NCBI GenBank assembly: GCA_029288895.1
Contig: JARIGK010000004.1
Span: forward strand, 241,866 to 298,336
DNA: 56,471 bases
DNA from: Candidatus Adlerbacteria bacterium
GTDB taxonomy: Bacteria > Patescibacteriota > Minisyncoccia > Phycocordibacterales > SBAW01
Direction of reading: 5' to 3'
The notes below the pieces were generated by a model, which had not been told where the DNA came from, ran no database searches, and saw only the letters and a program-made list of their open reading frames with translations. Every line of letters starts with the position of its first letter. Positions within the stretch are counted from its first letter, which is position 1. Made by a program: the position numbers and the translations under genes. Of this stretch, positions 5,447-56,471 are shown piece by piece.

Positions 5447-5452
5447 AATATA
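5447..5452 (-). promoter_or_regulatory. -10 box TATATT, 8 nt before ATG 5438 (leaderless type)
   Basis: The minus strand reads TATATTgaaaaccaATG. Confidence 0.45.
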
Positions 5453-5453
5453 C

Positions 5454-5459
5454 TATACT
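5454..5459 (+). promoter_or_regulatory. -10 box TATACT, 6 nt before ATG 5466 (leaderless type)
   Basis: TATACTgtgtgtATG. It shares the 27-nt divergent intergenic region with the box at 5447..5452. Confidence 0.45.
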
Positions 5460-5465
5460 GTGTGT

Positions 5466-6512
5466 ATGCGAGGTCTGCTCTCTGGAATTTTTTCAACACT
5501 ACTCGTTCTATATATATGTGTCACTGCAGCGCCAGTGCAGGCGGATGTAGCATCTACCCACTACAAAATTTTAGGGCCAACGATAAGCCCTGGCGGCACC
5601 GGGTCGTCCGCGAGCTATAAACTCTCAGGCACAGAAGGCGAAGTGGCGCATAACGGCGGCTCGTCGGCGAGTTATAAATTACAACTTGGCTTCTTCTCAT
5701 TTCCAGTGGTGACGGCGCCGGTGCTGTCGGTGCAGACAGGGAACGCCAGTGGCCGCGCGGATTTGAGTTGGTCTGCAGCCATTCCGTATCTTGGCTATAC
5801 CGTCTCTTCATATAACGTTGGCTACGCCACAGCATCGGGCGGCCCATACACATTTGTATCTGCAGGCAATGTGCTGACATACAACGTATCGTCGCTTACA
5901 AATGGTACGCCATATTACTTTGTTGTCACGGCGCTTGATAATACAAACATTACTATCGCGACGTCGAGCGAAGTAACCGCCACACCTGTAGCGCCATCGC
6001 TCACCTTTGTTGTGGATTCTGGTTCGCAGTCGCTGCCGACGTTTACGCCAGGTTCGCTCACTGCAACATCAAGTATCCTCACGGTGAAGACAACGAACCC
6101 CACAGGTTTTGTTACAACACTTTCTCGCGCAACGGTTTCAGGAACGCTGGCATTAAATACAGACAGTTCCGTCGTTATTCCAGACAAAACAGACTGGACC
6201 GCGCCAGCAGCAACAACAACAAGCGGCCCGACAACGGCATCGACAACGCAACCACTGACACTGCAGTTCCGCCTGTGGAAGGCAATGACCGATACGCCAA
6301 ACTATTCGACTGCATGGTGGGGCGCAGACGATACATCGTCTGGCGCGCTCTTTGCAGGCATCCCGTCAACAACGCAGTCGATAGCGAACCGCTCGACATC
6401 GGCACTTTCGACAACCACATTGCGCGTGTTGTATGACTTGAACGTGCCCGTAACGCAAAAGACAGGTACGTATACTGGCAGTGTTGTGTATTCGGTGACA
6501 GCGAATCCGTGA
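5466..6512 (+). CDS. secreted protein with an FN3 domain and a C-terminal WxL-like beta-sandwich domain
   Basis: Start moved to ATG 5466 (MRGLLSGIFSTLLVLYICVTAAPVQA signal peptide). FN3-like segment LSWSA..GYTVSSYNVGYA..GTPYYFVVTALD. The C-terminal ~170 aa is paralogous to the next gene (TNPTGFVTTLS / TDWTAPAA / WWG..D / GIPS / GTYTGSVVYSVTANP). Confidence 0.6.
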   Translation: MRGLLSGIFSTLLVLYICVTAAPVQADVASTHYKILGPTISPGGTGSSASYKLSGTEGEVAHNGGSSASYKLQLGFFSFPVVTAPVLSVQTGNASGRADLSWSAAIPYLGYTVSSYNVGYATASGGPYTFVSAGNVLTYNVSSLTNGTPYYFVVTALDNTNITIATSSEVTATPVAPSLTFVVDSGSQSLPTFTPGSLTATSSILTVKTTNPTGFVTTLSRATVSGTLALNTDSSVVIPDKTDWTAPAATTTSGPTTASTTQPLTLQFRLWKAMTDTPNYSTAWWGADDTSSGALFAGIPSTTQSIANRSTSALSTTTLRVLYDLNVPVTQKTGTYTGSVVYSVTANP

Positions 6513-6606
6513 TCTATATATAGAGGAGTGATGGATGGGGATAACGATAATAACCACTTGAGAAACCGTACGCTATACTTGTAAACGACAGGGAATTGAA
6601 TTTTCA

Positions 6607-7317
6607 ATGAACAACTCTTCATTTTCTTTTGTATACGCCCGCCAGATCGACATCGTCGATTTTACGAAGTCGCTCATCATTACAACCACGCTATTTATGG
6701 GCGTGATCCTTGCTATGCAGGCCTATGCAGCAACAGTGACGCTTTCTGTTATCGTGAACACCTCGCTTACCTTCAACACTGCAACCGATAACTTCACCAC
6801 TATCCAGCCAGGTACCGCAGTGTACGCAACAACGACGCTTTCGGTGCTGACGAACGACACAGCAGGATGGAACATTACGCTTTCGGGCGATCAAAAGAAC
6901 AGCCAGCCGCAAAACAACCTCCAGTTGAACGGCGCAACGTCAACGCAGATCTCCGACCAGACTGAATGGGTGCCCGCTGCGGCAACGTCAAGCGCTGGCA
7001 ATGCTGTGCGCATTAGCTCGCTTGTAAACTCAGGCAATGTGCTCGCGTTTCGTGTGATGTCTGCATCATCGACCAACGGCGCACCATTTTTGGCAACGTC
7101 GTGGTGGGGAACAGCCGATAACTATACCGACAATGCAAACACGCTCTGGGCCGGTATCCCGTCGTCAACAGTGCAGCGACGTGTCGGTAATGCAGGCTCG
7201 GGTTCGTACAGCTCAACGGCGCACTTAAACACTGTGCTTTACTACTTGAACGTTTCAGCGTCGCAGCCAACTGGTACGTACAACGCACCTATTACCTATA
7301 CCGCCACGGGCAACTAG
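6607..7317 (+). CDS. secreted WxL-like surface protein (paralog of the 5466..6512 C-terminal domain)
   Basis: Signal/anchor LIITTTLFMGVILAMQAYA. TNDTAGWNITLSGDQ resembles the D.RG..GW.L.V motif of WxL proteins. C-terminal end GTYNAPITYTATGN. Shares TEWVPAAAT, SWWGTADN and WAGIPSS with the upstream gene. Confidence 0.5.
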   Translation: MNNSSFSFVYARQIDIVDFTKSLIITTTLFMGVILAMQAYAATVTLSVIVNTSLTFNTATDNFTTIQPGTAVYATTTLSVLTNDTAGWNITLSGDQKNSQPQNNLQLNGATSTQISDQTEWVPAAATSSAGNAVRISSLVNSGNVLAFRVMSASSTNGAPFLATSWWGTADNYTDNANTLWAGIPSSTVQRRVGNAGSGSYSSTAHLNTVLYYLNVSASQPTGTYNAPITYTATGN

Positions 7318-7320
7318 CAT

Positions 7321-8232
7321 ATGGCAGCGAAACGATTTGCATACCTGACAGCTGCCGGGGTAGCGACAGCACTTTTTGCGTTCTCGGCTCTCCCCGCATT
7401 TGCTTCAACAGGTCTTTCTATCCAGCCAGTTAAGATCGACCAGACAATCAACCCAGGCGATGTGCTTGATGGCAGTATTTTGCTTGGCAATGCGAGCGAT
7501 GGCCCGGTTGATGTCGAAGTGAGCCTCCAAGACTTTGTGCCAACAGCGGGTGCCGATGGTATCCAGTTTATTGGCCGTACCGAAGGCGTTACCAGCGTTA
7601 TCGACTGGATCCATGTTGATACGAAAAATACTTTTTCGCTCAAACAGGGCGAGCAGATTAGCCTTCCGTACACCATCACTGCACCACTAAATGCTGAACC
7701 AGGCAGCCACTTAGGCGTCATTCTTTTTAAAGCAACGCCAAAAAATGCGCCGTCAGGCAGCATTAAAGTCGGTACACAAGTGGGTACGCTTGTGATGGTC
7801 GCAATCCCGGGCAACCATTTGGAAAAAGGAACCATTCTCGACTTTATGGTGCCGATGTTTTCGCAGAAGGGCCCTATACCGTTTGATATCAAATTCCAAA
7901 ATACTGGCACCGTACACTTCGAACCAAAAGGCACCATCATCATCCGCAATATGTTTGGCCAAAAAGCGGGCGAGGTGCCTGTCACGGGCCAGGTTGCACT
8001 GCCAACAAGCGTAAAAGAATTAAAGTTCTCATGGGACCCGGGCACATTTGCGCTCGGGCGCTACACTGCGTCGGCAACCATTTATGATGGCGAAGGCGAC
8101 GCACTTACATCTAAAGAAGTGTCGTTTTGGATCGTACCTATCTGGTACATACTCGGCTTCCTCGTTGTCCTTGTCCTTATCTACATGATCTTGCGCTACA
8201 TCAAGCGCCACGTCCGCCTGACCTTGCAGTAA
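7321..8232 (+). CDS. DUF916/DUF3324-like cell-surface protein with a C-terminal TM anchor
   Basis: Signal peptide ALFAFSALPAFAS. Two Ig-like halves: LSIQPVKIDQTINPGDVLDGSILLGNASDGPVDVEV..GSHLGVILFKA, and FDIKFQNTGTVHFEPKG..LGRYTASATIYD. C-terminal helix IVPIWYILGFLVVLVLIYMIL followed by RYIKRH. Confidence 0.5.
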   Translation: MAAKRFAYLTAAGVATALFAFSALPAFASTGLSIQPVKIDQTINPGDVLDGSILLGNASDGPVDVEVSLQDFVPTAGADGIQFIGRTEGVTSVIDWIHVDTKNTFSLKQGEQISLPYTITAPLNAEPGSHLGVILFKATPKNAPSGSIKVGTQVGTLVMVAIPGNHLEKGTILDFMVPMFSQKGPIPFDIKFQNTGTVHFEPKGTIIIRNMFGQKAGEVPVTGQVALPTSVKELKFSWDPGTFALGRYTASATIYDGEGDALTSKEVSFWIVPIWYILGFLVVLVLIYMILRYIKRHVRLTLQ

Positions 8233-8241
8233 AATACACTC

Positions 8242-8847
8242 ATGCAAACGATACGTGTCGGCGTCGCAGTCGTCCTTGGCGCGCTGGTCGTATGCGCAAC
8301 TATTGCTGCCTTTCGTACGCTGATACATGCGGGTGGTATTACGCCTACGCATTTGTTGGGCGCAACCGACACGCTTGCTATCTATGTCGACAATACTAGT
8401 TGCCCTGCTCCTGCGGGCCAGTCGTGCCAGACCAGCGCTAACATCTGCGGGCAGGTAAACACAGGCGTTATTTTGTGCGATGGCGTATGTTCGGCGACAA
8501 CAGCGCCTCCAGATTCACAATGTGTCGACAACAACCCGCCACCACCTAACACGGGCGGTGGAGGTGGTGGCGGGGGTGGGGGCGGAGGAGGTGGTGGAGG
8601 CGGCGGCCTCGCACTTGCGACCCCTACACCTGCGCCTCCGCCAGCATCGCAAAGTTGTACCGATCGAAAGAAAATTGGTGACTTTAACTGCAGCCAAAAA
8701 GTCGACCTCGGGGACTTTAGCATCTTGGCGTATTGGTTTAAACGTCCGCTTACCGACGCTGCAATCGCAGAGGGCGTCGACTTGAATCATGATGGGAAAG
8801 TGACCCTCGCCGACTTCAGCATACTCGCGTATTATTGGGGTAAGTAA
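8242..8847 (+). CDS. dockerin-containing protein with an N-terminal anchor/signal, a Cys-rich module and a poly-Gly linker
   Basis: Duplicated dockerin segments GDFNCSQKVDLGDFSILAYWF and VDLNHDGKVTLADFSILAYYW (calcium-loop D.N.DG.V). Eight Cys lie in CPAPAGQSCQTSANICGQVNTGVILCDGVCSATTAPPDSQC..SCTD..NC. N-terminal hydrophobic helix. Confidence 0.75.
   Translation: MQTIRVGVAVVLGALVVCATIAAFRTLIHAGGITPTHLLGATDTLAIYVDNTSCPAPAGQSCQTSANICGQVNTGVILCDGVCSATTAPPDSQCVDNNPPPPNTGGGGGGGGGGGGGGGGGGLALATPTPAPPPASQSCTDRKKIGDFNCSQKVDLGDFSILAYWFKRPLTDAAIAEGVDLNHDGKVTLADFSILAYYWGK
8554..8607. repeat. 18 consecutive Gly codons (mixed GGN)
   Basis: ggc ggt gga ggt ggt ggc ggg ggt ggg ggc gga gga ggt ggt gga ggc ggc ggc. 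The opposite strand produces a spurious poly-Pro ORF. Confidence 0.95.
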
Positions 8848-11227: not shown

Positions 11228-11233
11228 TATACT
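11228..11233 (+). promoter_or_regulatory. -10 box TATACT, 9 nt before ATG 11243
   Basis: TATACTgatgagtatATG. Confidence 0.4.
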
Positions 11234-11242
11234 GATGAGTAT

Positions 11243-13555
11243 ATGCATCGACTACCTCTCATCACATGGGCGCGCTATATATTTGTAGCTGGATTATTTA
11301 TTGCATTAGTGGGCTTGATTCCGTCTGCGTGGTTTCCATTGCAGTTGGGCAAGCTCGCGTTATTTGCCGTCTTGGCATTTGTGGCGGGCGCATTCTTTTT
11401 TGTAGGTGGCGGGGGCGGGGGTATCGCTGGTAAACGAGGTACGTTTCTTTCCTTTGCCGTGCTCGCGCTGCCGTTTGGGTACCTCCTTTCGTACGTATTC
11501 TCGACAGATAAGAGTGTGGCGCTCTTGGGCTACTCTCTCGAGGCCGACACGGTCGCGTTTGTGACCCTAGGGTGTCTTGCGTTCCTCCTTGGTTCTTTTC
11601 TCTTCCGCCGCAGCCCATCGGTGCGCCTCCTCCTTTCATCTATCCTTGGCGCTGCTGGCATAGCGCTTGTCTTCCAAATCATTAGCATTCTGTTTGGGAC
11701 GCATGTTCTCTCGCAACTCTTTGCCGACCCATCAACAAACCTTGTTGGTAAATGGAATGATCTTGGCCTTCTTGCCGGCTTAGCGCTTATGCTGCTCACC
11801 ATTCCGTTGGCCTCAGGCACGCTCACGCCTGTGCGCCGCATTGCTGCAGCACTGGCATCGATTGTGCTTGTTGTATTTTTAGCGCTTGTACAGTTTGCAC
11901 TCGTGTGGGGCCTGTTGCTCGCATTCTTCTGTGTGCTTGCGCTTATGATGTATCTTTCGACAGAAGGTGAGTCGCGCCCAATCCCGTGGCTCCCAATCGC
12001 AGGCGCTGTCATCAGCGTGCTCTTGTTGGTGTGGGGTGCTGTTGTGCAAGGCGGGCTTACAAAAGTATTTCCTGTGTCGTCTTTGGAAGTGCGCCCGGCA
12101 ATTTCCACCACGCTTGATATCACTCGCGCATCACACGGCAGCTCAATTGAGCGCTTCCTCGTGGGTTCTGGGCCCAATACATTTGGCAGTCAGTGGTCGC
12201 TCTACCGTCCACAAGAAGTAAACCTATCGCAATTCTGGAACCTGGACTTTAACGTTGGCTACAGCACGCTCGCCACTGCGCTCGCAACCGTTGGCCTCCT
12301 TGGCGCATTGCTCTGGCTTCTGCCGCTTGTCCTCGTTCTTCTTGGTCTTGTCCGTGCCATTCGTACTCCATCGCCTGTAGCAGAAGATATGATCCTTGCA
12401 CTTTCTACAGGCTTTGGCGCTGCGTATTTGTGGATCTCGACCTTCTTCTATGTTCCGAGCCAAAATATGCTTTTGCTCGCATTTGTTTTGTCGGGTGCCG
12501 CGTTTGCATTCTCTATGCGCGGAGAAGCGTCTGCGCCGGATGTTCAGCAGACATCACATCGCATGCCGCGGCTTCTCTATATCGCGCTGTGGTGCCTGGT
12601 TGTCGTGCTGCTTGGCGTCATTGCATGGGCAGGCGGCCGCCGCTTCATGGCCGAGATGTATACCAACAAGGGCTTGGCAGCGCTTGGAGCGGGTGATGTG
12701 CCAGGAGCGCTGACGTCGGCGAACATGGCACTGTCGACGGAGCGCACAGGCGACGCATTGCAGTTTGCATCGGTCGCAGGACTTGCACAGATGCAGACAC
12801 TCATTAACGCAACATCGACCCCGTCTACACAAACGCAACAAGTATTTGCACAAACGGCACAAACGACTATTTCAATCGGGCAAGAGGCAGTCTTGAAGAA
12901 CCCGTCTGATTACCGTGCATACACACTGCTTGCTAATGTCTACAGCTTGCTTGCATCTGTTGGCGTCGATGGCGCATACGATACGGCAAAGAAGTTCTAC
13001 GCAAACGCTTCGGCACACAACCCGAGCAACCCGGCACTACCGCTGGCGCTCGCACGGCTCGAAGCAGCTCATGGCAATGAAGCTGCAACCACGGCAGCGC
13101 TCCAACAATCGCTCCAGTTAAAGAACGATTACACAGACGCGATCCTCTTTGTGGTGCAGCTTGATGTTGCGAAAAAAGATATCCCGAATGCAATTATTGC
13201 GGCAAAAGCTGCGGTGCAAAGTGCGCCCGGTGTGCCGTCAATTTGGTTTGAGTTGGGCCTTCTGTTTTACTCAAACAACGACATGAAGGATGCTGCACTT
13301 GCACTCGAACAAGCGGTGGCACTCGAGCCAAACTACGCAAATGCAAAATACTTCCTGGGCCTCTCGTACGCGAACGTAAACCGCACCGCAGATGCAATCA
13401 AGCAGTTTAAAGACTTGGCTGCGACGAACCCCGACAATCAAGAAGTACAACTTATCCTTTCGAACTTGGAGGCCGGCAAAAAACCGTTTGATGGGGCTAC
13501 TCCGCCCGTCACTAAAAACCCAGAGGATAGGCAGTCAGCGCCTATTGGCCAATAA
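11243..13555 (+). CDS. polytopic O-antigen-ligase-like membrane protein with a C-terminal TPR domain
   Basis: Start moved to ATG 11243, because the listed 11129 start overlaps rnpB. About 12 predicted TM helices. The C-terminal ~300 aa contains TPR-like repeats (ALELEPNYANAKYFLGLSYANVNRTADAIKQFKDL). Confidence 0.65.
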   Translation: MHRLPLITWARYIFVAGLFIALVGLIPSAWFPLQLGKLALFAVLAFVAGAFFFVGGGGGGIAGKRGTFLSFAVLALPFGYLLSYVFSTDKSVALLGYSLEADTVAFVTLGCLAFLLGSFLFRRSPSVRLLLSSILGAAGIALVFQIISILFGTHVLSQLFADPSTNLVGKWNDLGLLAGLALMLLTIPLASGTLTPVRRIAAALASIVLVVFLALVQFALVWGLLLAFFCVLALMMYLSTEGESRPIPWLPIAGAVISVLLLVWGAVVQGGLTKVFPVSSLEVRPAISTTLDITRASHGSSIERFLVGSGPNTFGSQWSLYRPQEVNLSQFWNLDFNVGYSTLATALATVGLLGALLWLLPLVLVLLGLVRAIRTPSPVAEDMILALSTGFGAAYLWISTFFYVPSQNMLLLAFVLSGAAFAFSMRGEASAPDVQQTSHRMPRLLYIALWCLVVVLLGVIAWAGGRRFMAEMYTNKGLAALGAGDVPGALTSANMALSTERTGDALQFASVAGLAQMQTLINATSTPSTQTQQVFAQTAQTTISIGQEAVLKNPSDYRAYTLLANVYSLLASVGVDGAYDTAKKFYANASAHNPSNPALPLALARLEAAHGNEAATTAALQQSLQLKNDYTDAILFVVQLDVAKKDIPNAIIAAKAAVQSAPGVPSIWFELGLLFYSNNDMKDAALALEQAVALEPNYANAKYFLGLSYANVNRTADAIKQFKDLAATNPDNQEVQLILSNLEAGKKPFDGATPPVTKNPEDRQSAPIGQ

Positions 13556-13570
13556 TAGTAAGATAGGGTA

Positions 13571-15241
13571 ATGGCGCGATTCTGGTCGGTATTTGGCAAA
13601 GAAGTGAGGGGTATGCACCAAGCTGCATACCTCCTTGCATTCTTCGCGTTGTGTTCGCAGCTCTTGGCGCTTGTACGCGACAGGTTGCTTGCGGCAAGCT
13701 TTGGCGCATCGCATACGCTCGACCTCTATTATGCTGCGTTCCGCATTCCAGATTTTCTTTTTGCGACGGTAGCCTCGCTCTTGTCACTCTATGCTTTATT
13801 GCCGGTCCTCACCCGGCTGGAACGCGAACACAAAGGCCTGGTTGTATCGTTCCTTGAGCAATCGCTCGTCGTGTTCTTTACAACGATGGGTGCAATCTCG
13901 TTTGTTGCGTTTATATTCGCACCGGAACTTGTGCCGCTTGTCACACCAGGTATCCATGATCCGCAGTTGATACTCTTGGCGCGCATCTTATTGCTCCAAC
14001 CGATCCTCCTTGGAGCGTCTAATATCGTGGGTGCGCTCACGCAATTGCGCCACCGTTTCTTTTTGTACTCAATCTCGCCGCTGCTCTACAACCTTGGCAT
14101 CATCATTGGTGTACTCGCACTCTACCCACGTATGGGCGTGGCAGGCCTTGGTTGGGGCGTGGTGCTTGGCGCATTCTTGCACTTCGCAATTCAAGTTCCA
14201 TTCTTTGGTATTGAACATTCAAACAAACGCTTGCCAAGCAAAACATTTTTCAAAGAGCTTGCCGCAGTGCTGGGGCTGTCTGTGCCGCGCACGCTAGGGC
14301 TCGCCGCAACGCAGATCTCACTCTTGGCGCTCGTTGCAATTGCGTCGTTTTTGGTGCCCGGCTCTATCTCTGTGTTTATGTTTGCGTACAACTTGCAGGC
14401 GGTGCCGCTTACTATCATCGGCGTGTCATATTCTGTCGCGGCATTCCCAACTTTGGCGCGCCTCCATGCCGCGGGGGACCATGGCGAGTTTGTACGCTAT
14501 ATCGAAACAGCGCTGCGCCACATTTTCTTCTGGTGCATCCCGGCAACTATTTTTGTGATTGTGCTGCGTGCGCAGCTTGTGCGCGTCATTTTAGGGGCAG
14601 GCGCTTTCGATTGGGGTGCAACACGCCTCACGGCCGCAGCCTTGGCGCTCTTTATTCTGTCGCTTGCGGCGCAGTCCATAACCTTGCTTATTGCGCGCGC
14701 ATACTATGCCGCGGGCAATACAAAAAAGCCCCTGTACTTCGGCCTCGCCGATATCTCTGTTTCAATCGTGAGCGCGATATTCTTTTTAGCGCTCTTCCAT
14801 GCAAACCCGTTTGTGCGCGCATTTCTTGAATCATTGCTACGCGTGGGCGACGTGCCAGGCACTATTGTATTGATGCTGGCACTCGCATACTGCTGTGGCG
14901 CGGTCGCAGAGTTTGTTATTGGGCTTGTCTTTTTCCTCCACGATTTCCGTATCCCGCGTTTGGCCATTTTTGAACTTATCTTCCAGAGTTTTTCTGCATC
15001 AGTTATCGGCGCCGGTGTGTCGTATTTGTTTTTAAACTACACAGGTATTGCGGGTACGATAAATAAAACAAGCATTTTGATAGGGCAGGGCGCGACTGCA
15101 GGTGTGCTTGGGCTCCTTGTTACGGCGGGGATCTTGGCACTCCTTAAAAATAGAGAGTTAGCTGAGGCAGTATCGGCATTTAAACGCCGCTTCCGCGACA
15201 CGCCTAAGGTCGCGCTCGAGACCACCGATATCTCGTCTTAA
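13571..15241 (+). CDS. murJ: lipid II flippase MurJ
   Basis: SQLLALVRDRLLAASFGASHTLDLYYAAFRIPDFLF is an MviN/MurJ N-terminal signature. About 14 TM helices. An alternative start lies at 13613. Confidence 0.85.
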   Translation: MARFWSVFGKEVRGMHQAAYLLAFFALCSQLLALVRDRLLAASFGASHTLDLYYAAFRIPDFLFATVASLLSLYALLPVLTRLEREHKGLVVSFLEQSLVVFFTTMGAISFVAFIFAPELVPLVTPGIHDPQLILLARILLLQPILLGASNIVGALTQLRHRFFLYSISPLLYNLGIIIGVLALYPRMGVAGLGWGVVLGAFLHFAIQVPFFGIEHSNKRLPSKTFFKELAAVLGLSVPRTLGLAATQISLLALVAIASFLVPGSISVFMFAYNLQAVPLTIIGVSYSVAAFPTLARLHAAGDHGEFVRYIETALRHIFFWCIPATIFVIVLRAQLVRVILGAGAFDWGATRLTAAALALFILSLAAQSITLLIARAYYAAGNTKKPLYFGLADISVSIVSAIFFLALFHANPFVRAFLESLLRVGDVPGTIVLMLALAYCCGAVAEFVIGLVFFLHDFRIPRLAIFELIFQSFSASVIGAGVSYLFLNYTGIAGTINKTSILIGQGATAGVLGLLVTAGILALLKNRELAEAVSAFKRRFRDTPKVALETTDISS

Positions 15242-15252: not shown

Positions 15253-15261
15253 TGCTAGACT
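15253..15261 (+). promoter_or_regulatory. extended -10 TGcTAGACT, 7 nt before GTG 15269
   Basis: TGcTAGACTcgtggttGTG. Confidence 0.45.
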
Positions 15262-15268
15262 CGTGGTT

Positions 15269-17056
15269 GTGAATCATATCCGCAACTTCAGCATCATAGC
15301 CCATATCGACCACGGCAAATCCACGTTGGCGGATCGCTTTTTGGAGGTCACCAACACGATAGAAAAGCGCAAAATGCGCGACCAGGTTTTGGACTCGATG
15401 GATCTGGAACGCGAGCGCGGCATCACCATCAAAATGCAGCCGGTGCGTATGCGCTACAGCAAAGGTGGCCAGGAATACTTGCTGCACTTGATAGACACCC
15501 CAGGCCACATCGACTTTTCGTACGAAGTGTCACGCGCACTCACAGCCGTTGAGGGTGCGATTTTGCTTGTCGACGCAACACAAGGTGTCCAGGCCCAGAC
15601 GCTCACAACGCTCCGCACTGCGCAAGAATTGGGGCTCGTCATTATCCCGGCCATCTCTAAAGTTGATTCGCCTTTGGCCAATGTCGAAGACGTCCGTGCC
15701 CAGGTTGCGGCTTTGCTTGATGTTACGCCAGAATCAGTCCTTACATGTTCTGGCCGCACCGGGCAGGGAGTCCCGGAACTTTTGGACGCTATCATCGAAC
15801 GCGTTCCTCCGCCCAGAGAATCAACAGAAAAAGCAACGCGTGGCTTGGTGTTCGACTTTCAATATTCCGACCATCAGGGTGTGATTGTGTATTTGCGTGT
15901 CTTTGATGGGCAAATCAAAAAGGGCGACGCGCTCGAGTTTGCTGCAACGGGCCGAAAATTTAACGCACTCGAAGTTGGTAGTTTCTCACCAAAGCCAACG
16001 CCGCTGGTAGAGGGCTTGAGCGAAGGCACCATTGGCTACATCGTCACCGGCATCAAAGAGCCAGGCTTAGCGCGCGTCGGCGACACCGTGCGTGCTCAAA
16101 ACTCCAAAGCAGCACCGCTGTCGGGCTATGCCGAGCCAAAGGCCGTCGTATGGGCATCTGTATACCCAGAAAGCCAAGATGACTTTACGGCACTGCGCCA
16201 GGCGCTTGGCCGCCTGCGTCTCTCTGATTCGTCACTTTCGTTTGAAGAAGAATCGTCGGGTATGCTTGGCCGCGGCTTCCGTTGCGGCTTGCTTGGCATG
16301 CTCCACTTGGAAATCGTCACTGAGCGCTTGCGCCGCGAAGCGAACTTGTCGCTTGTCGTGACAACGCCCACCATTACCTACGAAGTAGAGACCCGCGACG
16401 GCAAACGCCATACGGTTTACTCGCCATCACAATTCCCAGAGTATGGCGATATTGCACAGGTGTGGGAGCCGTTTGTGTCGGCAGAAATTATTTTGCCAGC
16501 CGAATATATGGGCCAACTTGTCACATTGTTATTCGAACATGAGGCAGTGGCCGAAAGCACCGAAAACTTTTCAGAATCGCGCGTACGCGTTGTGGTGGTG
16601 ATGCCGCTGCGCGAATTGATGCGCAACTTTTTTGATAAACTAAAAAGCATCTCGTCGGGCTACGCGTCCATCTCGTACGAAATGCGAGAATTGCGCTTGG
16701 CTGATGTGGCGCGCCTCGACATGTACGTCGCAGAAGAAATTGTGCCGGCGTTTTCGCGCATCATTGCAAAACACAGAGCCGACGAAGAAGCGATAGCAGC
16801 AGTCGAAAAACTCTACAATATCTTGCCGCGCCAAAACTTTGCTACCAAAATCCAGGCCATGGCGCTTGGGCGTATTGTCTCGTCGCGTACGTTGTCTGCG
16901 ATGAGCAAGGACGTGACCCAGCACATGTACGGCGGCGACATCACCCGCAAAATGAAGCTCCGCGAAAAGCAAAAGAAAGGTAAAAAACGCGCTATGGAGC
17001 GCGGCCGAGTAAACATCCCCGAGGACGTCTTCCTCAAGATGATCAAAAGCGAATAG
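15269..17056 (+). CDS. lepA: elongation factor 4 (LepA)
   Basis: (M)NHIRNFSIIAHIDHGKSTLADR, DTPGHIDF. The GTG at 15269 gives the canonical LepA N-terminus. The listed start 15263 is 2 codons upstream. Confidence 0.95.
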   Translation: MNHIRNFSIIAHIDHGKSTLADRFLEVTNTIEKRKMRDQVLDSMDLERERGITIKMQPVRMRYSKGGQEYLLHLIDTPGHIDFSYEVSRALTAVEGAILLVDATQGVQAQTLTTLRTAQELGLVIIPAISKVDSPLANVEDVRAQVAALLDVTPESVLTCSGRTGQGVPELLDAIIERVPPPRESTEKATRGLVFDFQYSDHQGVIVYLRVFDGQIKKGDALEFAATGRKFNALEVGSFSPKPTPLVEGLSEGTIGYIVTGIKEPGLARVGDTVRAQNSKAAPLSGYAEPKAVVWASVYPESQDDFTALRQALGRLRLSDSSLSFEEESSGMLGRGFRCGLLGMLHLEIVTERLRREANLSLVVTTPTITYEVETRDGKRHTVYSPSQFPEYGDIAQVWEPFVSAEIILPAEYMGQLVTLLFEHEAVAESTENFSESRVRVVVVMPLRELMRNFFDKLKSISSGYASISYEMRELRLADVARLDMYVAEEIVPAFSRIIAKHRADEEAIAAVEKLYNILPRQNFATKIQAMALGRIVSSRTLSAMSKDVTQHMYGGDITRKMKLREKQKKGKKRAMERGRVNIPEDVFLKMIKSE

Positions 17057-17181: not shown

Positions 17182-17190
17182 TGCTACAAT
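17182..17190 (+). promoter_or_regulatory. extended -10 TGcTACAAT, 7 nt before ATG 17198
   Basis: TGcTACAATagcatatATG. Confidence 0.55.
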
Positions 17191-17197
17191 AGCATAT

Positions 17198-17976: not shown

Positions 17977-17982
17977 ATCCCC

Positions 17983-44118: not shown

Positions 44119-44124
44119 TTTACT

Positions 44125-44905: not shown

Positions 44906-44978
44906 TGCGCCCACGAGGGCTCGAACCTCGGACCATCTCCTTAAGAGGGAGTTGCTCTACCAACTGAGCTATGGGCGC
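44906..44978 (-). tRNA. tRNA-Lys(CUU), no encoded CCA
   Basis: The minus strand reads GCGCCCA..anticodon loop CTCTTAA..CGAGG-TTCGAGC-CCTCG-TGGGCGC-A. Confidence 0.9.
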
Positions 44979-45007
44979 GTAAAAATTAAGATACCATATT
45001 TTTGCGA

Positions 45008-45965: not shown

Positions 45966-46730
45966 CTAACTCGTCTGTTCGTCGTATGCTATTGCGCCGC
46001 GACATTCGCCGTGCGTGGGTATGGTGTGCCATACCACCACCTCGCCATCCTGCAGCGCATGCATTTCCTCAAATGTGCGTAACGGTCTCGTCTTAGAAAA
46101 GGTTCGTGTATGGCGGCTTGCTGGTGTGCCAGGGAGCATGCCAAGCGTCTGCATCGTGCGTTCTATATACGCCGCGTGCGTACCCTCATCTTCTGATTCT
46201 GCGAGCACATAGGCACAGCCATATCGCGCCAGTGTTTTGAGGCCACGGTATGCTGGCTCGCGTATGGCTGCATCGATACCAAGCGCTGTGATGCACGCTG
46301 TGCCGCGCGCATCGATATCCTCCACGCTGGTGATATCATTCCATGCGCAATCAATCGCAATTTCGTTTTGGGCGCCGCTGTGCAGGTCGAGCCATAGGCC
46401 GGCGTGGCGCGCATATGTCTGCACAAGCGTGTATATCAACCGTTCCGTCGATGTGCCCCATGCGTGCCCAGGTATGCAGTACTTGGGGAACTTGCCATCG
46501 ATAGGGTTTGCGGACATGTGTGCCTCAAAGCCAGCGATATTTACAATAGGCACAATAATAAGGCGGCCATTAAAATCGCCATCACGAAACTTTTCTGCTG
46601 CTTCGTAGGCTGCGGCAATAGGCGCATACTCATCGCCGTCCATACCTGCGGTGATGAGCAGCGTTGTGCCAGGGCGCCCGTGGATATCGACTAGAGGGGG
46701 CGTGGGTGATGCGCGGAAGGGCCCAAACAT
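45966..46730 (-). CDS. succinylglutamate desuccinylase/aspartoacylase-like (M14-fold) protein with atypical metal-site residues
   Basis: LLITAGMDGDEYAP occupies the position of the G.HG.E zinc motif. IVPIVNIAGFEA and WLDLHSG are present. Confidence 0.55.
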   Translation of the reverse strand: MFGPFRASPTPPLVDIHGRPGTTLLITAGMDGDEYAPIAAAYEAAEKFRDGDFNGRLIIVPIVNIAGFEAHMSANPIDGKFPKYCIPGHAWGTSTERLIYTLVQTYARHAGLWLDLHSGAQNEIAIDCAWNDITSVEDIDARGTACITALGIDAAIREPAYRGLKTLARYGCAYVLAESEDEGTHAAYIERTMQTLGMLPGTPASRHTRTFSKTRPLRTFEEMHALQDGEVVVWHTIPTHGECRGAIAYDEQTS

Positions 46731-46736
46731 ACAAGC

Positions 46737-46745
46737 ACTTTAGCA
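46737..46745 (-). promoter_or_regulatory. extended -10 TGcTAAAGT, 6 nt before ATG 46730
   Basis: The minus strand reads TGcTAAAGTgcttgtATG. Confidence 0.5.
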
Positions 46746-46756: not shown

Positions 46757-46765
46757 TGATAAAAT
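46757..46765 (+). promoter_or_regulatory. extended -10 TGaTAAAAT, 8 nt before ATG 46774
   Basis: TGaTAAAATgagcctacATG. Confidence 0.5.
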
Positions 46766-46773
46766 GAGCCTAC

Positions 46774-48276
46774 ATGGACGAGACACTGGCCGACCTTGCG
46801 GATGACCTGGATGAAATAGGGGCACTTGCAGAAGATGCGCTTGTAAAGCTCAGGCGCCACCGCGCATATCTTGAGAAGTCCCCATCTGTCTATTTTGAAG
46901 AGACTCGCACATTCATGCTCGAGAGAGTGCGTACTCTGGAGGCAGACTACGAAACGCTGCGAACAACCATACAAAAGGAAATCGAAAGCACGCCTCGCGG
47001 GGTGAGTGCGGATGCACAAAGACTTATCGCATTCAAAAAAAAGTCGGCCGACATGCTCCGCACGCTGCAAACATCGCTTGGCTCGGCACTTGCAGAAGGC
47101 GATTGGCAGTCACCCTCGTTTGCGCATACAGACGTCTCGCAAGCGGGTGTCGACGAAGGTCATATTATTCCAGGTGACAACGATTACCGCCGCGACGCGC
47201 ACAGTGTCGAGCGCAGCTTTGGCCGTGCGTTTTCTGCCGAATATATCAATCATCCGCTCCGTATCCCGCCGCATGTCAGTGTGACCAATAGCGGCATGGC
47301 TGCGATAACCGCGGCACTTACCTTGGCGGCGGGGAAGGTGCGCGACGGTGATGGTGTGTTGGCGGGCAAGTCGAGCTATTTCCAAAGCCGTTGGGTGCTC
47401 GAGAAATTATTCCCCGGCAAAGTCACCTATATTGATGAGTTTGATACAGAAGGCATCGTACGTTTTGTCGAAGAAAAAAAGCCCCGTGTTGTATTGTTCG
47501 ACACGCTCTGTAATGCGCCGGAAATTCCTGTGCTCGATGCCACGACACTGGTGCCGTTACTTGCAAAACATATGTCGCGCGACTCGACGCTCATACTCGA
47601 CAATACAGGCCTTGCAACATCATTTCAGCCGCTGAAATATCTGCCGCTAAATCCGCTTGGCATGCGCCTTATAGTCGTCGAGAGTTTGCTTAAATATCAC
47701 GAGTTTGGCATGGACCGCGTCACTGCTGGCGTTGTCTGGTCGCCGTTTGACCTGGCGCGCGAAGAGCCGTTTGTTGCGCGTATGCACGGCGGCACTATTG
47801 CGCCCGACGTGTCAGTCCATATGCTGCCTGGGCCCGACCGCGCACGGTTCGACAGGCGCCTTGCACGCTTGGCTCGCAATGCAGGGATACTGGCAGAGGC
47901 TATAGACACTGCAGCAAGGAACGGCAGCAATAAAGTGTCGCATGCTGTGTATCCAGGGCTGCCGTCCTACAGAGGGTATGCCTACACCAAAGACATGTCG
48001 TTTCATGGAGGGTTTCTAACGCTTGCGTTTAGGAAATCGTACGCATCGATTTCGCACTACGACCGTTTTGTTGCGCACGCGTTAAAGGAAGCAAAAACGC
48101 GCGGGCTCGACCTCGTTGGTGGTACAAGCTTTGGATTTAATACAACGCGCATTTCTGTCCCTGCGCGCTACAGCGGCGGTACAGCGGAGCCGTTTGTACG
48201 CATTGCTGCAGGGACTGAAACAAAACAAGAAATTGAGGCGCTCGCGAGTATGTTCGCAGATGTTGTATGCGGCTAA
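46774..48276 (+). CDS. PLP-dependent enzyme (Cys/Met-metabolism fold) with a ~150-aa helical N-terminal extension
   Basis: VTNSGMAAITAAL, VLFDTLCNAPEIPVLD, and the PLP-lysine context VVESLLKYHEFGMD (compare S.TKY.GGH). Confidence 0.55.
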   Translation: MDETLADLADDLDEIGALAEDALVKLRRHRAYLEKSPSVYFEETRTFMLERVRTLEADYETLRTTIQKEIESTPRGVSADAQRLIAFKKKSADMLRTLQTSLGSALAEGDWQSPSFAHTDVSQAGVDEGHIIPGDNDYRRDAHSVERSFGRAFSAEYINHPLRIPPHVSVTNSGMAAITAALTLAAGKVRDGDGVLAGKSSYFQSRWVLEKLFPGKVTYIDEFDTEGIVRFVEEKKPRVVLFDTLCNAPEIPVLDATTLVPLLAKHMSRDSTLILDNTGLATSFQPLKYLPLNPLGMRLIVVESLLKYHEFGMDRVTAGVVWSPFDLAREEPFVARMHGGTIAPDVSVHMLPGPDRARFDRRLARLARNAGILAEAIDTAARNGSNKVSHAVYPGLPSYRGYAYTKDMSFHGGFLTLAFRKSYASISHYDRFVAHALKEAKTRGLDLVGGTSFGFNTTRISVPARYSGGTAEPFVRIAAGTETKQEIEALASMFADVVCG

Positions 48277-50780: not shown

Positions 50781-51317
50781 TTATGCGCGCCCGAGCTTCT
50801 TGTGCTTGGCGACGGAGTCTTTTGCTTTTGCTATCGCGTCCCGTTCTTCTGGGGTCAGCTCGTACGTCGAGTTTCCTTTCTCGAGCGGCTTTGCGTAGAC
50901 GCCAACGTGATTGCGAGAGTAGAGAGTTGAAAGTACCACTCCAGAATGCTCTTCGTCAAGGAGCGCAATACAGAAGCTTTGGTTGCCGCCATTTCCATTT
51001 CCAGAGAATGCATTGAAACGGACCATGCCCAACCCCTGCACGCTTCCGCGGATGCGGCTTTCTGCTAACTTCAAATATTTCTCAAGCTCATTGCGGAACT
51101 GCTGCAATTCTTTGGTGTCGCGCACCAAGACCGCTATGCTTTCTTCAATTGAGCCATTTCGGCCAAGCGCCAATTTTATAAAGCGGCGGCGGATCGAAAG
51201 CAGAAGTACAAGGGCGATGAGAGAAAGCAGCAATGCACCCAGAGCGACCCAAGGTGTTGCCGCTGCCACGTAGGGCTGGATATGCATAAAAAAGGCTTGC
51301 AGAGATGCGAACGACAT
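50781..51317 (-). CDS. DUF4446 family protein
   Basis: N-terminal TM helix, then GMVRFNAFSGNGNGGNQSFCIALLDEEHSGVVLSTLYSR. Confidence 0.7.
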   Translation of the reverse strand: MSFASLQAFFMHIQPYVAAATPWVALGALLLSLIALVLLLSIRRRFIKLALGRNGSIEESIAVLVRDTKELQQFRNELEKYLKLAESRIRGSVQGLGMVRFNAFSGNGNGGNQSFCIALLDEEHSGVVLSTLYSRNHVGVYAKPLEKGNSTYELTPEERDAIAKAKDSVAKHKKLGRA

Positions 51318-51324
51318 AAAGAGC

Positions 51325-51332
51325 AGTATACT
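51325..51332. promoter_or_regulatory. palindrome AGTATACT providing overlapping divergent -10 boxes, each 7 nt from a start codon
   Basis: The 22-bp intergenic sequence is aaagagcAGTATACTgaaatta. The plus-strand TATACT (51327..51332) lies 7 nt before ATG 51340. The minus-strand TATACT (51325..51330) lies 7 nt before ATG 51317. Confidence 0.55.
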
Positions 51333-51339
51333 GAAATTA

Positions 51340-52530
51340 ATGTGGTTTAGAAAGGAGAGAATCTACGCAGATGCGGCGGCGGCAACGCCAATTTCTGCGC
51401 ATGCAAAAGAGGAGCTTGTGAGGCTTTTGGATGTGTATGGCAACGCAGGTGCATTACACAAAGAAGCGGTTGCAGCAAAAGATGAAATGGAGGCGGCACG
51501 CACAACTATCGCCGAGTCGATCGGCGCACACGCAGACGAAATTATTTTCTCGGCGAGCGGTACCGAGAGCAACAATATTGCCATCAACGGTGTGCTGCGC
51601 CCGATGCTGCAGAAGCTGGGTCCACTGCATGCTATAACACTTGCGATTGAACATCAGTCGGTGCTTGAGCCGCTGCGTGCATTGAAAGCGGAGGGTCTGT
51701 CTACAACCGAGTTTGGCGTCGACGCTGAAGGCCTGCCGTCGCTCAAAGAATTAAAGGAGGTGATTACCGATACGACGGTATTTATTTCGGTGCAGATGGT
51801 CAATAGCGAAGTTGGCACTGTGGAGCCAATACAAGAGATTGCAAAACTCATTCGCCACGTGCGCAAAGAACGAGGCGAAAATGGCTTGCCGCTCTATTTT
51901 CATACAGATGCGTCCCAGGCGCCGATGTGGCTGCCGCTTCGCGTCGAAAAGCTCGGGGTAGATTTGCTGACGCTTGATGCACAGAAGGTACAGGGCCCTA
52001 AAGGCATCGGCGCGCTCTATATAAAGAGGAGGACGGATATCTCGCCCGTAATACGCGGCGGTGTGCAAGAGCGCGGGCTTCGCGGCGGCACGCCCAACAC
52101 GCCGCTTGCAGGCAGTTTTGCCGCGGCAATGAAAGACGCTGCGAATGGGGTAGAGGCTCGTGCGGCACACACTGCAGAGGTTCGAGACTTTTTGTTTGCT
52201 GAACTAAAGAAGAAAATCCCGGACACCATTTTAAATGGTCCGACTTTTAAAGACCGTGTAGCAAATAATCTCAACATTTCTATCCCAGGGTTGGATGGCG
52301 AGATGGCTGTGCTTGGCATGGACGCAGAGGGTGTTGCTGTGTCGACCCGCTCTGCCTGCAATACCGGCGACGAAAGCCCATCCCATGTCATACAAGCCCT
52401 CGGTGTACCCAAACATCTTTCAAAAACTGCCGTCCGAATTACACTGTTGCCCACGGCAACAAAAAGAGATGCGTCTCGTATTGCAGCTGCGTTCCAAAAA
52501 ATTGCAAAGAGGTATAAAAGCGTTGTATAA
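51340..52530 (+). CDS. cysteine desulfurase (class V aminotransferase fold, NifS/IscS-like)
   Basis: IIFSASGTESNN, HTDASQA, PLP-lysine context TLDAQKVQGPKGIGALY, and active-site Cys in STRSACNTG. Confidence 0.8.
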   Translation: MWFRKERIYADAAAATPISAHAKEELVRLLDVYGNAGALHKEAVAAKDEMEAARTTIAESIGAHADEIIFSASGTESNNIAINGVLRPMLQKLGPLHAITLAIEHQSVLEPLRALKAEGLSTTEFGVDAEGLPSLKELKEVITDTTVFISVQMVNSEVGTVEPIQEIAKLIRHVRKERGENGLPLYFHTDASQAPMWLPLRVEKLGVDLLTLDAQKVQGPKGIGALYIKRRTDISPVIRGGVQERGLRGGTPNTPLAGSFAAAMKDAANGVEARAAHTAEVRDFLFAELKKKIPDTILNGPTFKDRVANNLNISIPGLDGEMAVLGMDAEGVAVSTRSACNTGDESPSHVIQALGVPKHLSKTAVRITLLPTATKRDASRIAAAFQKIAKRYKSVV

Positions 52531-52531
52531 T
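52526..52531 (+). promoter_or_regulatory. -10 box TATAAT, 8 nt before ATG 52540, overlapping the upstream stop codon
   Basis: TATAATagcaactaATG. Confidence 0.45.
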
Positions 52532-52539
52532 AGCAACTA

Positions 52540-53334
52540 ATGGACCTCGAGCAGCTAACCAAACATCAGGTAATTCTGCTCACGCTGTTGGTTGCACTCG
52601 TGACCTCCATTGCGACAGGTATTGTGACCGTGTCGCTTATGAATCAGGCACCGCAGGGTGTCACCCGTACCATCAATCAAATCGTCGAACGTACCGTGCA
52701 GACCGTCGCCCCGCCAACGCAGGGTGCCGCAGCTGCAACCGTCACGACCGAAAAAACAATCGTCGTTAAAGACGACGACCTCACGGCGCAGTCGATCGCA
52801 ACTGTGCAAAAGTCGATCGTGCGCATCACCGCAAAAGGTGGCAACGAATTGCTTGCGCGCGGCGTCATCGTAAATTCAGACGGAACCACGCTTACTGATA
52901 GTGGGGCGATTCTCGGTTCGGACGCAAAAGCTTTTGACGCAATACTTTCTGATGGCACGCGCGTCCCAGCAACACTTGTCTCGGCATCTGCGAGTACGTC
53001 GCTTGCCCGCATGAATGTCACCTTTGGTACATCTACTGCGGCAGCGCCGGCGAAGATCACGGATGTCTCCAAGCTTCGCTTGGGGCAAAGCATCATCCGC
53101 ATCGGTGGCAAAGGCACCGATGTAGTGGGTGAGGGTGTCATCGCGTCACTTCCAGGCTCCTCGAGCGTCATCGAAGCAAGCGTGACATCCGCAACGCCAG
53201 GCTCCGTGCTTATCACGCTCTTTGGTGAAATCATCGGTATTACCACAGCCGACTCGCTCGACGAAGGTAGCGATTACTACACCATCCCTGTTATACCTGC
53301 ACCCCCTGCAACCAAACCAAGTCCTAAGACGTAA
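52540..53334 (+). CDS. membrane-anchored trypsin/HtrA-fold protein lacking the catalytic His (probable pseudo-protease)
   Basis: N-terminal TM helix. RGVIVNSDGTTLTDSGAIL aligns to GSG.II..G.ILTN.HVV, and TPGSVLITLFGEIIGIT aligns to N.GNSGGPL....G.VIGI. The only His in the protein is residue 9. Confidence 0.55.
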   Translation: MDLEQLTKHQVILLTLLVALVTSIATGIVTVSLMNQAPQGVTRTINQIVERTVQTVAPPTQGAAAATVTTEKTIVVKDDDLTAQSIATVQKSIVRITAKGGNELLARGVIVNSDGTTLTDSGAILGSDAKAFDAILSDGTRVPATLVSASASTSLARMNVTFGTSTAAAPAKITDVSKLRLGQSIIRIGGKGTDVVGEGVIASLPGSSSVIEASVTSATPGSVLITLFGEIIGITTADSLDEGSDYYTIPVIPAPPATKPSPKT

Positions 53335-56043: not shown

Positions 56044-56061
56044 AAAACTAGAATCTAAATC

Positions 56062-56091
56062 AAAACCCCTCCGGATATCCGGAGGGGTTTT
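56062..56091. terminator. bidirectional rho-independent terminator (clpB on the plus strand, tRNA-Tyr on the minus strand)
   Basis: aaaacccctccgg-atat-ccggaggggtttt. Confidence 0.85.
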
Positions 56092-56095
56092 GTAT

Positions 56096-56182
56096 TGGTG
56101 CGCCGGGTAGGATTCGAACCTACGTAGCCGCAAGGGCGCTTGGTTTACAGCCAAGTGTAATTGACCACTCTACCACCGACGC
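56096..56182 (-). tRNA. tRNA-Tyr(GUA), long variable arm, CCA encoded
   Basis: The minus strand reads GCGTCGG..CTTGG-CTGTAAA-CCAAG..variable arm..GTAGG-TTCGAAT-CCTAC-CCGGCGC-A-CCA. Confidence 0.92.
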
Positions 56183-56257
56183 ATATTTCAATTACCGCAC
56201 ATATTTGCGAGAACGCTATAAAAATACACTTTTTAAAGCCTCTTGTCGAATTTATGA

Positions 56258-56266
56258 TGGTACAAT
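56258..56266 (+). promoter_or_regulatory. extended -10 TGgTACAAT, 8 nt before ATG 56275
   Basis: TGgTACAATttttgtacATG. Confidence 0.55.
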
Positions 56267-56274
56267 TTTTGTAC

Positions 56275-56471
56275 ATGAACGCGCGGAAGCTTGTAGTGCT
56301 TTCTATTGGAATTGGTCTCGTCTCGCCACTGCTTGCCTATGCACAGAGCACCGGCCTCGTTCCCTGTGGCGCAACAACAGGCGGGAACTACACAAGCAGC
56401 TCTTTCTATCTGCAAGCCACCGGCTGCAACTTCTGCTACTTGGCCGTACTCATCCAGAACGTAGTCAACTT
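56275..56471 (+). CDS. Cys-containing pilin-type protein, 3' end cut by the window edge
   Basis: Hand translation: MNARKLVVLSIGIGLVSPLLAYAQSTGLVPCGATTGGNYTSSSFYLQATGCNFCYLAVLIQNVVN. It shows the signal peptide plus GLVPCG...C.FC..L.QN pattern I associate with CPR T4SS-pilin-type proteins. It is absent from the ORF track because there is no stop codon in the window. Confidence 0.6.
   Translation, partial: MNARKLVVLSIGIGLVSPLLAYAQSTGLVPCGATTGGNYTSSSFYLQATGCNFCYLAVLIQNVVN

Follow-up and report, generated by a model that had tools for sequence, protein, structure and literature searches.

The window, a 56.5-kb stretch of contig JARIGK010000004.1 with 52% G+C and 11 tRNA genes, carries a -10 promoter box directly before the start codons of many of its protein genes. 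The LepA protein of the window was 84-85% identical to that of metagenome-assembled genomes (MAGs) labelled Candidatus Adlerbacteria or Patescibacteria and 62-79% identical to that of other Parcubacteria/Paceibacteria, and by these identities the window was assigned to a Candidatus Adlerbacteria-like member of the Parcubacteria in the candidate phyla radiation (CPR). The LepA search yielded 80 related loci (L001-L080; 1.34 Mb in total), which served as an independent sample of the lineage and are called the relatives below. The initial annotation had placed a TAnnnT hexamer, often extended by TGn, 6-9 nt upstream of the start codon at 22 genes and had proposed leaderless initiation for them. 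All 22 coordinates were real motifs in the sequence; each marks the T of TGn in an extended box and otherwise the first T of the hexamer, or, for minus-strand genes, the low coordinate. In the following, the spacer is the number of nucleotides between the last T of the hexamer and the start codon, and boxes are scored in bits with a weight matrix trained on the relatives only.

Two divergent gene pairs were separated by 27 and 22 nt, which leaves no room for a leader on either side, and -10 boxes were present on both strands. In the first pair (boxes at 5447-5459), a class A beta-lactamase-like gene (5436..5452, -; Pfam Beta-lactamase2) had TATATT 8 nt before ATG 5438 (7.4 bits), and an FN3 protein gene (5454..5468, +) had TATACT 6 nt before ATG 5466 (9.0 bits). 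In the second pair (overlapping boxes at 51325-51332), the DUF4446 gene (51315..51330, -; ATG 51317; 6.6 bits) and the cysteine desulfurase gene (51327..51342, +; ATG 51340; 7.1 bits) both had TATACT with a spacer of 7 nt, and the two promoters shared the palindrome AGTATACT. Unextended boxes also preceded an O-antigen-ligase-like/TPR protein gene (11228..11245, +; TATACT, 9 nt, ATG 11243; 7.2 bits; conserved in four relatives), prsW (20731..20747, -; TATACT, 8 nt, ATG 20733; 8.9 bits; TATACT or TATAAT conserved in 12 relatives), lepB (32985..32999, -; TACAAT, 6 nt, ATG 32987; 5.7 bits), a methyltransferase gene (41312..41326, +; TACAAT, 6 nt, ATG 41324; 7.2 bits) and the gene of a 264-aa protein located 9 nt after its upstream gene (52526..52542, +; TATAAT, 8 nt, ATG 52540; 12.3 bits). 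For 'pilin 3' (44113..44127, +; TATAAT, 6 nt, ATG 44125; 10.5 bits), the ATG is the fifth start codon of the open reading frame (ORF), so this start was chosen by the motif.

The box of hsp20 (20058..20074, -; 8 nt, ATG 20060) lies inside the 3' end of prsW. It reads TATAAA at 20074..20069, lacks the invariant last T and scored 4.9 bits; it is thus outside the pattern, which held strictly at 21 of the 22 sites. The hsp20 gene of the window shares 29 nt with the end of prsW and lacks GAyTAyTGyTAA, a sequence conserved 0-20 nt from the ATG in the hsp20 orthologues of ten relatives; this sequence could act in heat-shock control or represent a TGyTAA-type box.

The TGn extension, claimed for about half of the sites, was found at 11 of the 22. 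The extended boxes preceded lepA (15253..15271, +; TGCTAGACT, 7 nt, GTG 15269), ftsB/divIC (17182..17200, +; TGCTACAAT, 7 nt, ATG 17198; 10.2 bits; conserved in four relatives), hxlR (17974..17991, -; TGATACACT, 6 nt, ATG 17976; 7.8 bits; conserved in two relatives), the glutaredoxin gene (18691..18710, +; TGCTATACT, 8 nt, ATG 18708; 12.6 bits), the gene of a 92-aa protein (19102..19120, +; TGATACAAT, 7 nt, ATG 19118; 10.1 bits; extended -10 in about ten relatives), a bS21-like gene (30819..30838, -; TGGTATGGT, 8 nt, ATG 30821; 5.7 bits), pth (33035..33055, +; TGATACACT, 9 nt, ATG 33053; 9.8 bits), an MBL-fold hydrolase gene (36278..36297, +; TGATATAAT, 8 nt, ATG 36295; 13.8 bits, the best score of the window), an AstE/AspA-type (M14-like) hydrolase gene (46728..46745, -; TGCTAAAGT, 6 nt, ATG 46730; 8.0 bits), the gene of a pyridoxal phosphate (PLP) enzyme (46757..46776, +; TGATAAAAT, 8 nt, ATG 46774; 10.8 bits) and 'pilin 5', which runs off the window (56258..56277, +; TGGTACAAT, 8 nt, ATG 56275; 10.7 bits). 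The GTG start reported for lepA was right, but it applies to the second GTG (15269, spacer 7 nt) and not to 15263; position 2 of Pfam GTP_EFTU aligns with residue 3 of this product, and orthologues begin there too. Just upstream of the hxlR box, at about 18000-22 between hxlR (17976) and the LUD gene (18062), there is a 10-bp inverted repeat, AGTACTTTAC-AAA-GTAAAGTACT, which is conserved in three relatives and is probably the HxlR operator. Most gene names of the initial annotation were confirmed by Pfam, and two needed qualification: the 'pilins' (43185-44802, +) are type IV secretion pilins (PF18895, TrbC/VirB2-like) and not type IV pilus pilins, and the Ribosomal_S21 match of 'rpsU', the bS21-like gene, was weak (E = 0.004).

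Four leaderless cases were added to the list. These were a dockerin-like gene (8230..8244, +; TAAAAT, 6 nt, ATG 8242; 8.9 bits), murJ (13559..13573, +; TAAGAT, 6 nt, ATG 13571; 7.2 bits; TAAGAT, TAGAAT or TACAAT conserved in four relatives), a thioredoxin-reductase-like (trxB-like) gene located 4 nt after ftsZ (26943..26957, -; TAAAAT, 6 nt, ATG 26945; 9.8 bits) and, as a probable case, a class I aminoacyl-tRNA synthetase gene (22879..22894, -; TACGAT, 7 nt, ATG 22881; 4.4 bits; TACAAT, TAGTAT, TAAAAT or TAGAAT conserved in four relatives). At the dockerin-like gene, the upstream gene ends in a TAA that doubles as the first 3 nt of the hexamer, with a 9-nt gap between the two genes; a secreted-protein cluster with dockerin-like and cohesin-like domains extends over 8242-10423 (+).

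The spacers of the 22 sites were 6 nt at six, 7 nt at five, 8 nt at nine and 9 nt at two; with the four additions, the 26 promoters had spacers of 6 nt (nine), 7 nt (six), 8 nt (nine) and 9 nt (two), 25 ATG starts and one GTG (lepA), and TGn at 11. At 12 of the 22 sites, the reading frame was closed by a stop 2-9 codons upstream. Pfam models began at residues 2-4 in the glutaredoxin (position 1 aligned with residue 4), Pth (position 1 with residue 4), TrxB-like (position 1 at residue 2), LepA and MBL proteins. Among the 13 divergent first genes of the window, 11 carried a box. As the initial annotation had said for most sites, no -35 element was recognisable: TTGACA matches at 16-18 nt spacing had a mean best of 2.42 of 6, compared with 2.38 at random positions.

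Boxes of the same type were also found before genes that are not translated. The RNase P RNA gene (10893-11188, +; RF00010, 99.8 bits, E = 2e-31) had the extended -10 TGGTACAAT at 10880-10888, followed by 4 nt. The extended -10 of tRNA-Phe (19442; site 19425..19444, +) was TGTTAGTAT, 8 nt before the gene, and that of tRNA-Lys (44978; site 44976..44996, -) was TGGTATCTT, 9 nt before the gene. The RNase P RNA gene (class A, rnpB) is shorter than the model (296 versus 367 nt), contains an exact GAGGAAAGTCC and was missed by the default search because its score is below the Rfam gathering score of 100. Its -10 overlaps the TAA stop of a DUF192 gene, and a terminator-like hairpin (11197-11222) follows the gene, with the O-antigen-ligase-like promoter directly 3' of it.

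In contrast to the leaderless sites, ftsZ (28168..28215, -; 12.1 bits) and a glyoxalase-family gene (24528..24573, -; 12.4 bits) had a perfect TGGTATACT 36 nt before ATG 28170 and 34 nt before ATG 24530, respectively, with nothing similar beside the ATG and without a Shine-Dalgarno (SD) site. The leader of ftsZ would be about 29 nt long. Pfam position 1 corresponds to residue 3 of the glyoxalase-family protein. The two genes share, in addition to the box, a CACTACT run just before the ATG, conceivably a non-SD ribosome site.

Positional enrichment was measured on genes called with a crude codon model, in which the first ATG of each ORF was taken as the start by rule, so that the choice of start could not favour the motif. 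This gave 54 genes in the window and 901 genes of at least 120 aa in the relatives. In the window, TAnnnT at spacers 6-9 had 25 matches in the 54 genes, compared with about one per position at spacers 10-40; the window-wide background was 0.009 per position, and the enrichment over neighbouring upstream positions was about 6-fold. The weight matrix was obtained from the relatives by seeded expectation maximization (EM), which gave the consensus tGgTAtAaT and a spacer preference of 6 > 7 > 8 > 9. With a threshold of at least 6 bits at spacers 5-9, it matched 20 of the 54 starts, compared with 1.1 expected from all ATGs of the window (p = 2e-20), and five control offsets in the same upstream regions gave 0-3 matches. 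Randomly initialised EM motif discovery in the relatives returned a GC-rich compositional pattern, because the loci were of mixed GC; k-mer enrichment and seeded EM were used instead.

The relatives gave the same result. Among the 901 genes, TAnnnT occurred at 165 with a spacer of 6 nt and at 76 with a spacer of 7 nt, over a background of about 24 (p = 1e-79), and the most enriched 5-mers near the starts were pieces of TGCTATAAT and TATACT. The signal was found in close relatives and in distant low-GC relatives alike. The upstream profile thus has a sharp -10 peak at the distance predicted in the initial annotation, both in the window and in the genes of the 80 loci. The architecture appears to characterise the lineage as a whole (Adlerbacteria and other Paceibacteria/Parcubacteria) and not the window only.

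The hexamer-aligned sites of the relatives (347) showed T at 0.47 and G at 0.49 at positions -15/-14, which corresponds to TGn; upstream of the hexamer, at a distance of exactly 17 nt, there was also a faint TTG. Before tRNA genes (n = 243), the same motif peaked at a spacer of 9 nt, with 39 cases, 23 of them with TGn (p = 1e-21). In the orthologous upstream regions of lepA, ftsB, hxlR, prsW, murJ, the 92-aa gene, the trxB-like gene and the aminoacyl-tRNA synthetase gene, the box and its spacing were kept while the spacer sequence drifted. The lepA upstream region had TGCTAGACT and 6-7 nt in six close relatives, before GTG or ATG, and distant relatives had TGCTAAGAT, TGTTAGTAT and similar boxes; the GTG start was kept in several relatives for lepA and for the 92-aa gene. 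In some genes, for example that of glutaredoxin, the orthologues were either leaderless or had an SD-free leader of about 25 nt, a pattern that promoter turnover would produce. Taken together, these comparisons showed that the sites can be classed as sigma-70-type promoters of the extended -10 class (consensus tGnTAtAaT) with no usable -35; the gene of the sigma factor itself lies outside the window. The occurrence before tRNA genes and rnpB, the TGn and the conserved spacing in orthologues all identify the motif as a promoter and not as a ribosome site.

SD sites were not enriched before any class of gene, which agrees with the earlier remark that operon-internal genes mostly lack them. Anti-SD pairing of -4.5 kcal/mol or lower was found at 11% of the window starts and at 16% of random positions, and SD-like words were not enriched in the relatives (GGAGG 16 versus 12.6 expected). 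No 16S 3' end was found in the 1.34 Mb of related loci. No consistent alternative ribosome binding motif was found in 77 leadered genes of the window and relatives, whose leaders were short and A/T-rich with occasional SD-like runs. The sole strong SD-like site before a candidate start of the window was GTGGAGGAAGGGGAGGGTTCG-ATG 40787 (40766-40789, +), with a good GGAGG; the ORF, which is doubtful, has 90 aa and no Pfam match and lies in a 424-nt gap.

A census was made of the 57 evaluable protein genes of the window. Leaderless starts with a box of at least 5.7 bits at spacers 6-9 were assigned to 24 genes, and three more had weak boxes (hsp20, the aminoacyl-tRNA synthetase gene at 22881 and the S1 gene). 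The remaining 30 genes comprised 18 that overlap the upstream gene or tRNA or start at most 12 nt from it (with ATGA or TAATG junctions, for example), six with gaps of 15-40 nt and no box, four with a strong box 27-36 nt upstream and two in none of these classes, including 40787. Genes that overlap the upstream stop or start at most 12 nt from it are probably translationally coupled. The proposal that the organism relies mainly on leaderless initiation was thus borne out for transcription units (24-27 leaderless versus 4 clearly leadered) but not for genes, of which 42-47% were classed as leaderless. The predicted leaderless set would comprise 24-27 of the 57 genes and about 80% of the transcription units headed by a promoter.

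Nine to eleven genes of the leaderless class lay just 4-28 nt behind another gene, with the -10 box in, or fused with, the end of the upstream gene. At same-strand gaps of at most 30 nt, the TAnnnT enrichment at spacers 6-9 was 45% in close relatives, about 12-fold over the flanks, which matches that of divergent genes. At gaps of at most 6 nt, a box was rare (11 of 100 in the relatives). A same-strand gap of 9 nt was over-represented in the relatives (18 genes, versus 6 for 8 nt and 2 for 10 nt). In 12 of these 18, a box was present, with the stop codon TAA or TAG as the first three bases of a hexamer placed 6 nt before the next ATG. The 9-nt junctions of the window were 8233-8241 and 52531-52539.

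The explanation that very probably accounts for these data, as a trait of the lineage, combines leaderless promoters, SD-free mRNAs and coupled downstream genes. RNA polymerase would start about 7 nt after the hexamer, so that with a spacer of 6-7 nt the transcript would begin at the A of the AUG and with a spacer of 8-9 nt it would begin 1-3 nt before the AUG. The resulting mRNAs would have neither a 5' untranslated region (UTR) nor an SD site, and the ribosome, with initiator tRNA and initiation factor 2 (IF2), would bind the 5'-terminal AUG (GUG at lepA), as in Mycobacterium, Deinococcus and haloarchaea. Tightly packed downstream cistrons would be translated by termination-reinitiation coupling at the upstream stop codon. 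We infer the actual transcription start, the mechanism of translation and the coupling from the DNA sequence. Such an architecture agrees with a published survey in which about half of Parcubacteria had lost the 16S anti-SD (PMC9297842).

It may well be, although the chances are somewhat below even, that part of the transcripts are near-leaderless: with a start 7 nt after the box, spacers of 8-9 nt would give a 5' UTR of 1-3 nt, and only spacers of 6-7 nt would give a start at the A of the AUG. Spacer-8 promoters were as many as spacer-6 promoters in the window (nine each), the seventh nucleotide after the box was A in five of the nine spacer-8 cases (AT-ATG or AC-ATG), and the peak of the tRNA promoters at spacer 9 implies leaders of 2-3 nt; against this stand the sharp peak of the relatives at spacer 6 and the ability of RNA polymerase to choose starts 6-10 nt from the box. 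This would refine rather than replace the leaderless explanation, because UTRs of up to 5 nt act as leaderless in mycobacteria. An unlikely alternative is that only the boxes at operon heads are active, and that those at 8242, 13571, 15269, 18708, 20733, 26945, 41324 and 52540 are silent or minor, their genes being read from polycistronic mRNA by coupling or SD-independent internal initiation. The gaps there are just 4-28 nt, without terminators between the genes, and at 9-nt gaps the stop TAA or TAG supplies the TA of the hexamer for free. It is opposed by the equally strong enrichment at short same-strand gaps and at divergent genes, by the over-representation of the 9-nt gap itself and by the conservation of the boxes in murJ, prsW, trxB and lepA orthologues.

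The position of the motif is also that of a ribosome binding site (RBS), SD sites are lacking, an S1 protein is encoded, and A/T-rich translation signals on leadered mRNAs, such as a Bacteroidota-type non-SD RBS or an S1 site, have been described from phyla poor in SD sites (PMC6028130 group B; PMC5397173). That the motif is such a signal and not a promoter is nevertheless very improbable: the same TGn motif precedes untranslated tRNA genes and rnpB, it has the exact -10 consensus plus TG at -15/-14, and it lies 34-36 nt upstream of ftsZ and the glyoxalase-family gene with nothing similar by the ATG. It is also largely missing at tightly coupled internal genes, while group B motifs precede internal genes too. 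An artefact of A/T-rich intergenic DNA, stop codons near starts and free choice of start codons is scarcely credible. The starts of 'pilin 3' and the O-antigen-ligase-like gene were indeed picked among several candidates, and the total of -10-like matches in the window was not above Markov-1 expectation; only the positional tests therefore carry weight, and the signal is where the matches sit. In those tests, the mechanical first-ATG rule agreed, the control offsets gave 0-3 matches versus 20, and the peak in the 901 independent genes was one to two positions wide; moreover, stop codons cannot produce the TGn enrichment.

Several points weigh against the leaderless explanation as a whole. Its key step, a leaderless transcription start, is read from the sequence alone. 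The chance-level total of -10-like matches counts here as well, because it means that the weak sites (hsp20, bS21, lepB, the aminoacyl-tRNA synthetase at 22881 and S1) could be coincidental. Spacers of 8-9 nt were found at 11 of the 26 listed promoters; to start on the A, the polymerase would have to reach 9-10 nt past the box instead of the usual 7-8, so leaders of 1-3 nt are likely at these genes. Some of the boxes that lie within the ends of upstream genes may be inactive, and a few relatives showed SD-like leaders.

Start codons were also found to abut tRNA genes, in the window and in relatives such as L005, L008, L010, L016, L025, L030 and L057. In a survey of 245 tRNAs, ORFs of at least 90 aa had their ATG at -1, 0 or +1 nt from the tRNA 3' end in 14 cases, versus 2.3 expected. 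In the window, the ATG of a 285-aa ORF (45863-45868, -; ORF 45008-45865) takes its A from the end of the CCA encoded in tRNA-Leu(taa), and tsaD lies 0-10 nt after a tRNA in the window (23970-23984, -) and in eight relatives. Processing of such tRNAs could yield mRNAs with the AUG at their 5' end, as it does in mitochondria. A wider proposal can be made only tentatively, as possible rather than probable: that Paceibacteria (Parcubacteria) abandoned SD-guided initiation, every cistron being either a 5'-AUG cistron (made by a -35-less extended -10 or by a cut at an adjoining tRNA 3' end) or reinitiated within a few nucleotides of an upstream stop. If true, this would be a free-standing bacterial lineage with an expression logic like that of mitochondria and haloarchaea, and it would account for the 16S anti-SD loss that has been reported and perhaps for a reduced IF2 and ribosome. 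The IF-2 of the window (49285-50775, -) has 496 aa, begins at the GTPase domain and has no N-terminal region, and the S1-domain protein (34088-35182, -) has 364 aa. The E. coli counterparts of both are longer, a difference that may be relevant to initiation without SD sites. Between the S1 and MBL genes, about 1.1 kb (35183-36290) had no convincing ORF and no Rfam match (best suhB, E = 0.17), and the fold of 35330-35760 was mildly better than shuffles (z = -2.0).

If the inference of leaderless starts holds, the gene starts of CPR/Parcubacteria in thousands of automatically annotated MAGs need a leaderless and not an SD model, with consequences for many N-termini, signal peptides and short genes. 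It would give a testable answer to how translation starts in Parcubacteria without an anti-SD. The promoter-stop fusion at 9-nt junctions and the 22-nt shared divergent control region concern genome compaction, and suggest that small genomes can dispense with UTRs. The promoter model tGnTAtAaT plus 6-7 nt could be used to delineate transcription units and to design expression constructs if these organisms become genetically tractable.

Leaderless architecture is well known from GeneMarkS-2 'group C', with Actinobacteria (such as Mycobacterium tuberculosis and Streptomyces) and Deinococcus-Thermus (such as D. deserti) (PMC6028130). CPR/Parcubacteria were not among the lineages reported as leaderless in the papers searched, and searches limited to open-access literature found no description of leaderless genes in CPR. 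As in group C, a Pribnow box lies 6-8 nt before the starts of first genes, no 5' UTR is predicted, the AUG or GUG would be 5'-terminal, and the consequences for gene-start prediction are the same. Group C is defined by at least 25% of transcription units being affected, a share that the window exceeds (24-27 leaderless versus 4 clearly leadered), and by an SD-type RBS before the remaining genes, which the window lacks. In group C, 25-50% of operons are leaderless and the remaining genes have SD sites, whereas here SD sites are not enriched and at least 80% of the recognisable promoters appear leaderless; the code-11 genomes of group C are mostly high-GC, while the window has 52% GC and its relatives go down to 34%. 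Unlike Bacteroidota-type group B motifs, the present motif is rare at tight junctions and occurs before tRNAs and rnpB. It resembles the extended -10 promoters of E. coli and Gram-positives in having TG one base upstream of TAnnnT and a dispensable -35; those form a minority class that is not tied to the start codon, while here this is the general promoter form (about half with TGn) and is positioned on the AUG.

For the same bacterial group, Tsurumaki et al. 2022 (PMC9297842) reported that about half of Parcubacteria have no 16S anti-SD motif; their study concerned rRNA only and left the start of translation open. The non-use of SD pairing that is expected from this loss matches the gene starts described here, and the putative leaderless and coupled architecture offers an answer to how Parcubacteria without an anti-SD start translation. 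In animal mitochondria, tRNA punctuation likewise places start codons against tRNA 3' ends, and the mRNAs are also leaderless and SD-free; here, in contrast, tRNA abutment is a minority (14-20 of 245 tRNA neighbourhoods), and most leaderless mRNAs would come from promoters, as judged from their sequence. Haloarchaea (Haloferax volcanii, Halobacterium; 'group D'; PMC3986360, PMC6028130) are similar in that most of their transcripts are leaderless, the leadered ones have no functional SD and SD-independent initiation is dominant. Their TATA and B recognition element (BRE) lie about 26 nt upstream and archaeal initiation factors are used, in contrast to the sigma-70 extended -10 at 6-9 nt found here; in the predicted leaderless share of promoters, the window is closer to haloarchaea than to group C.

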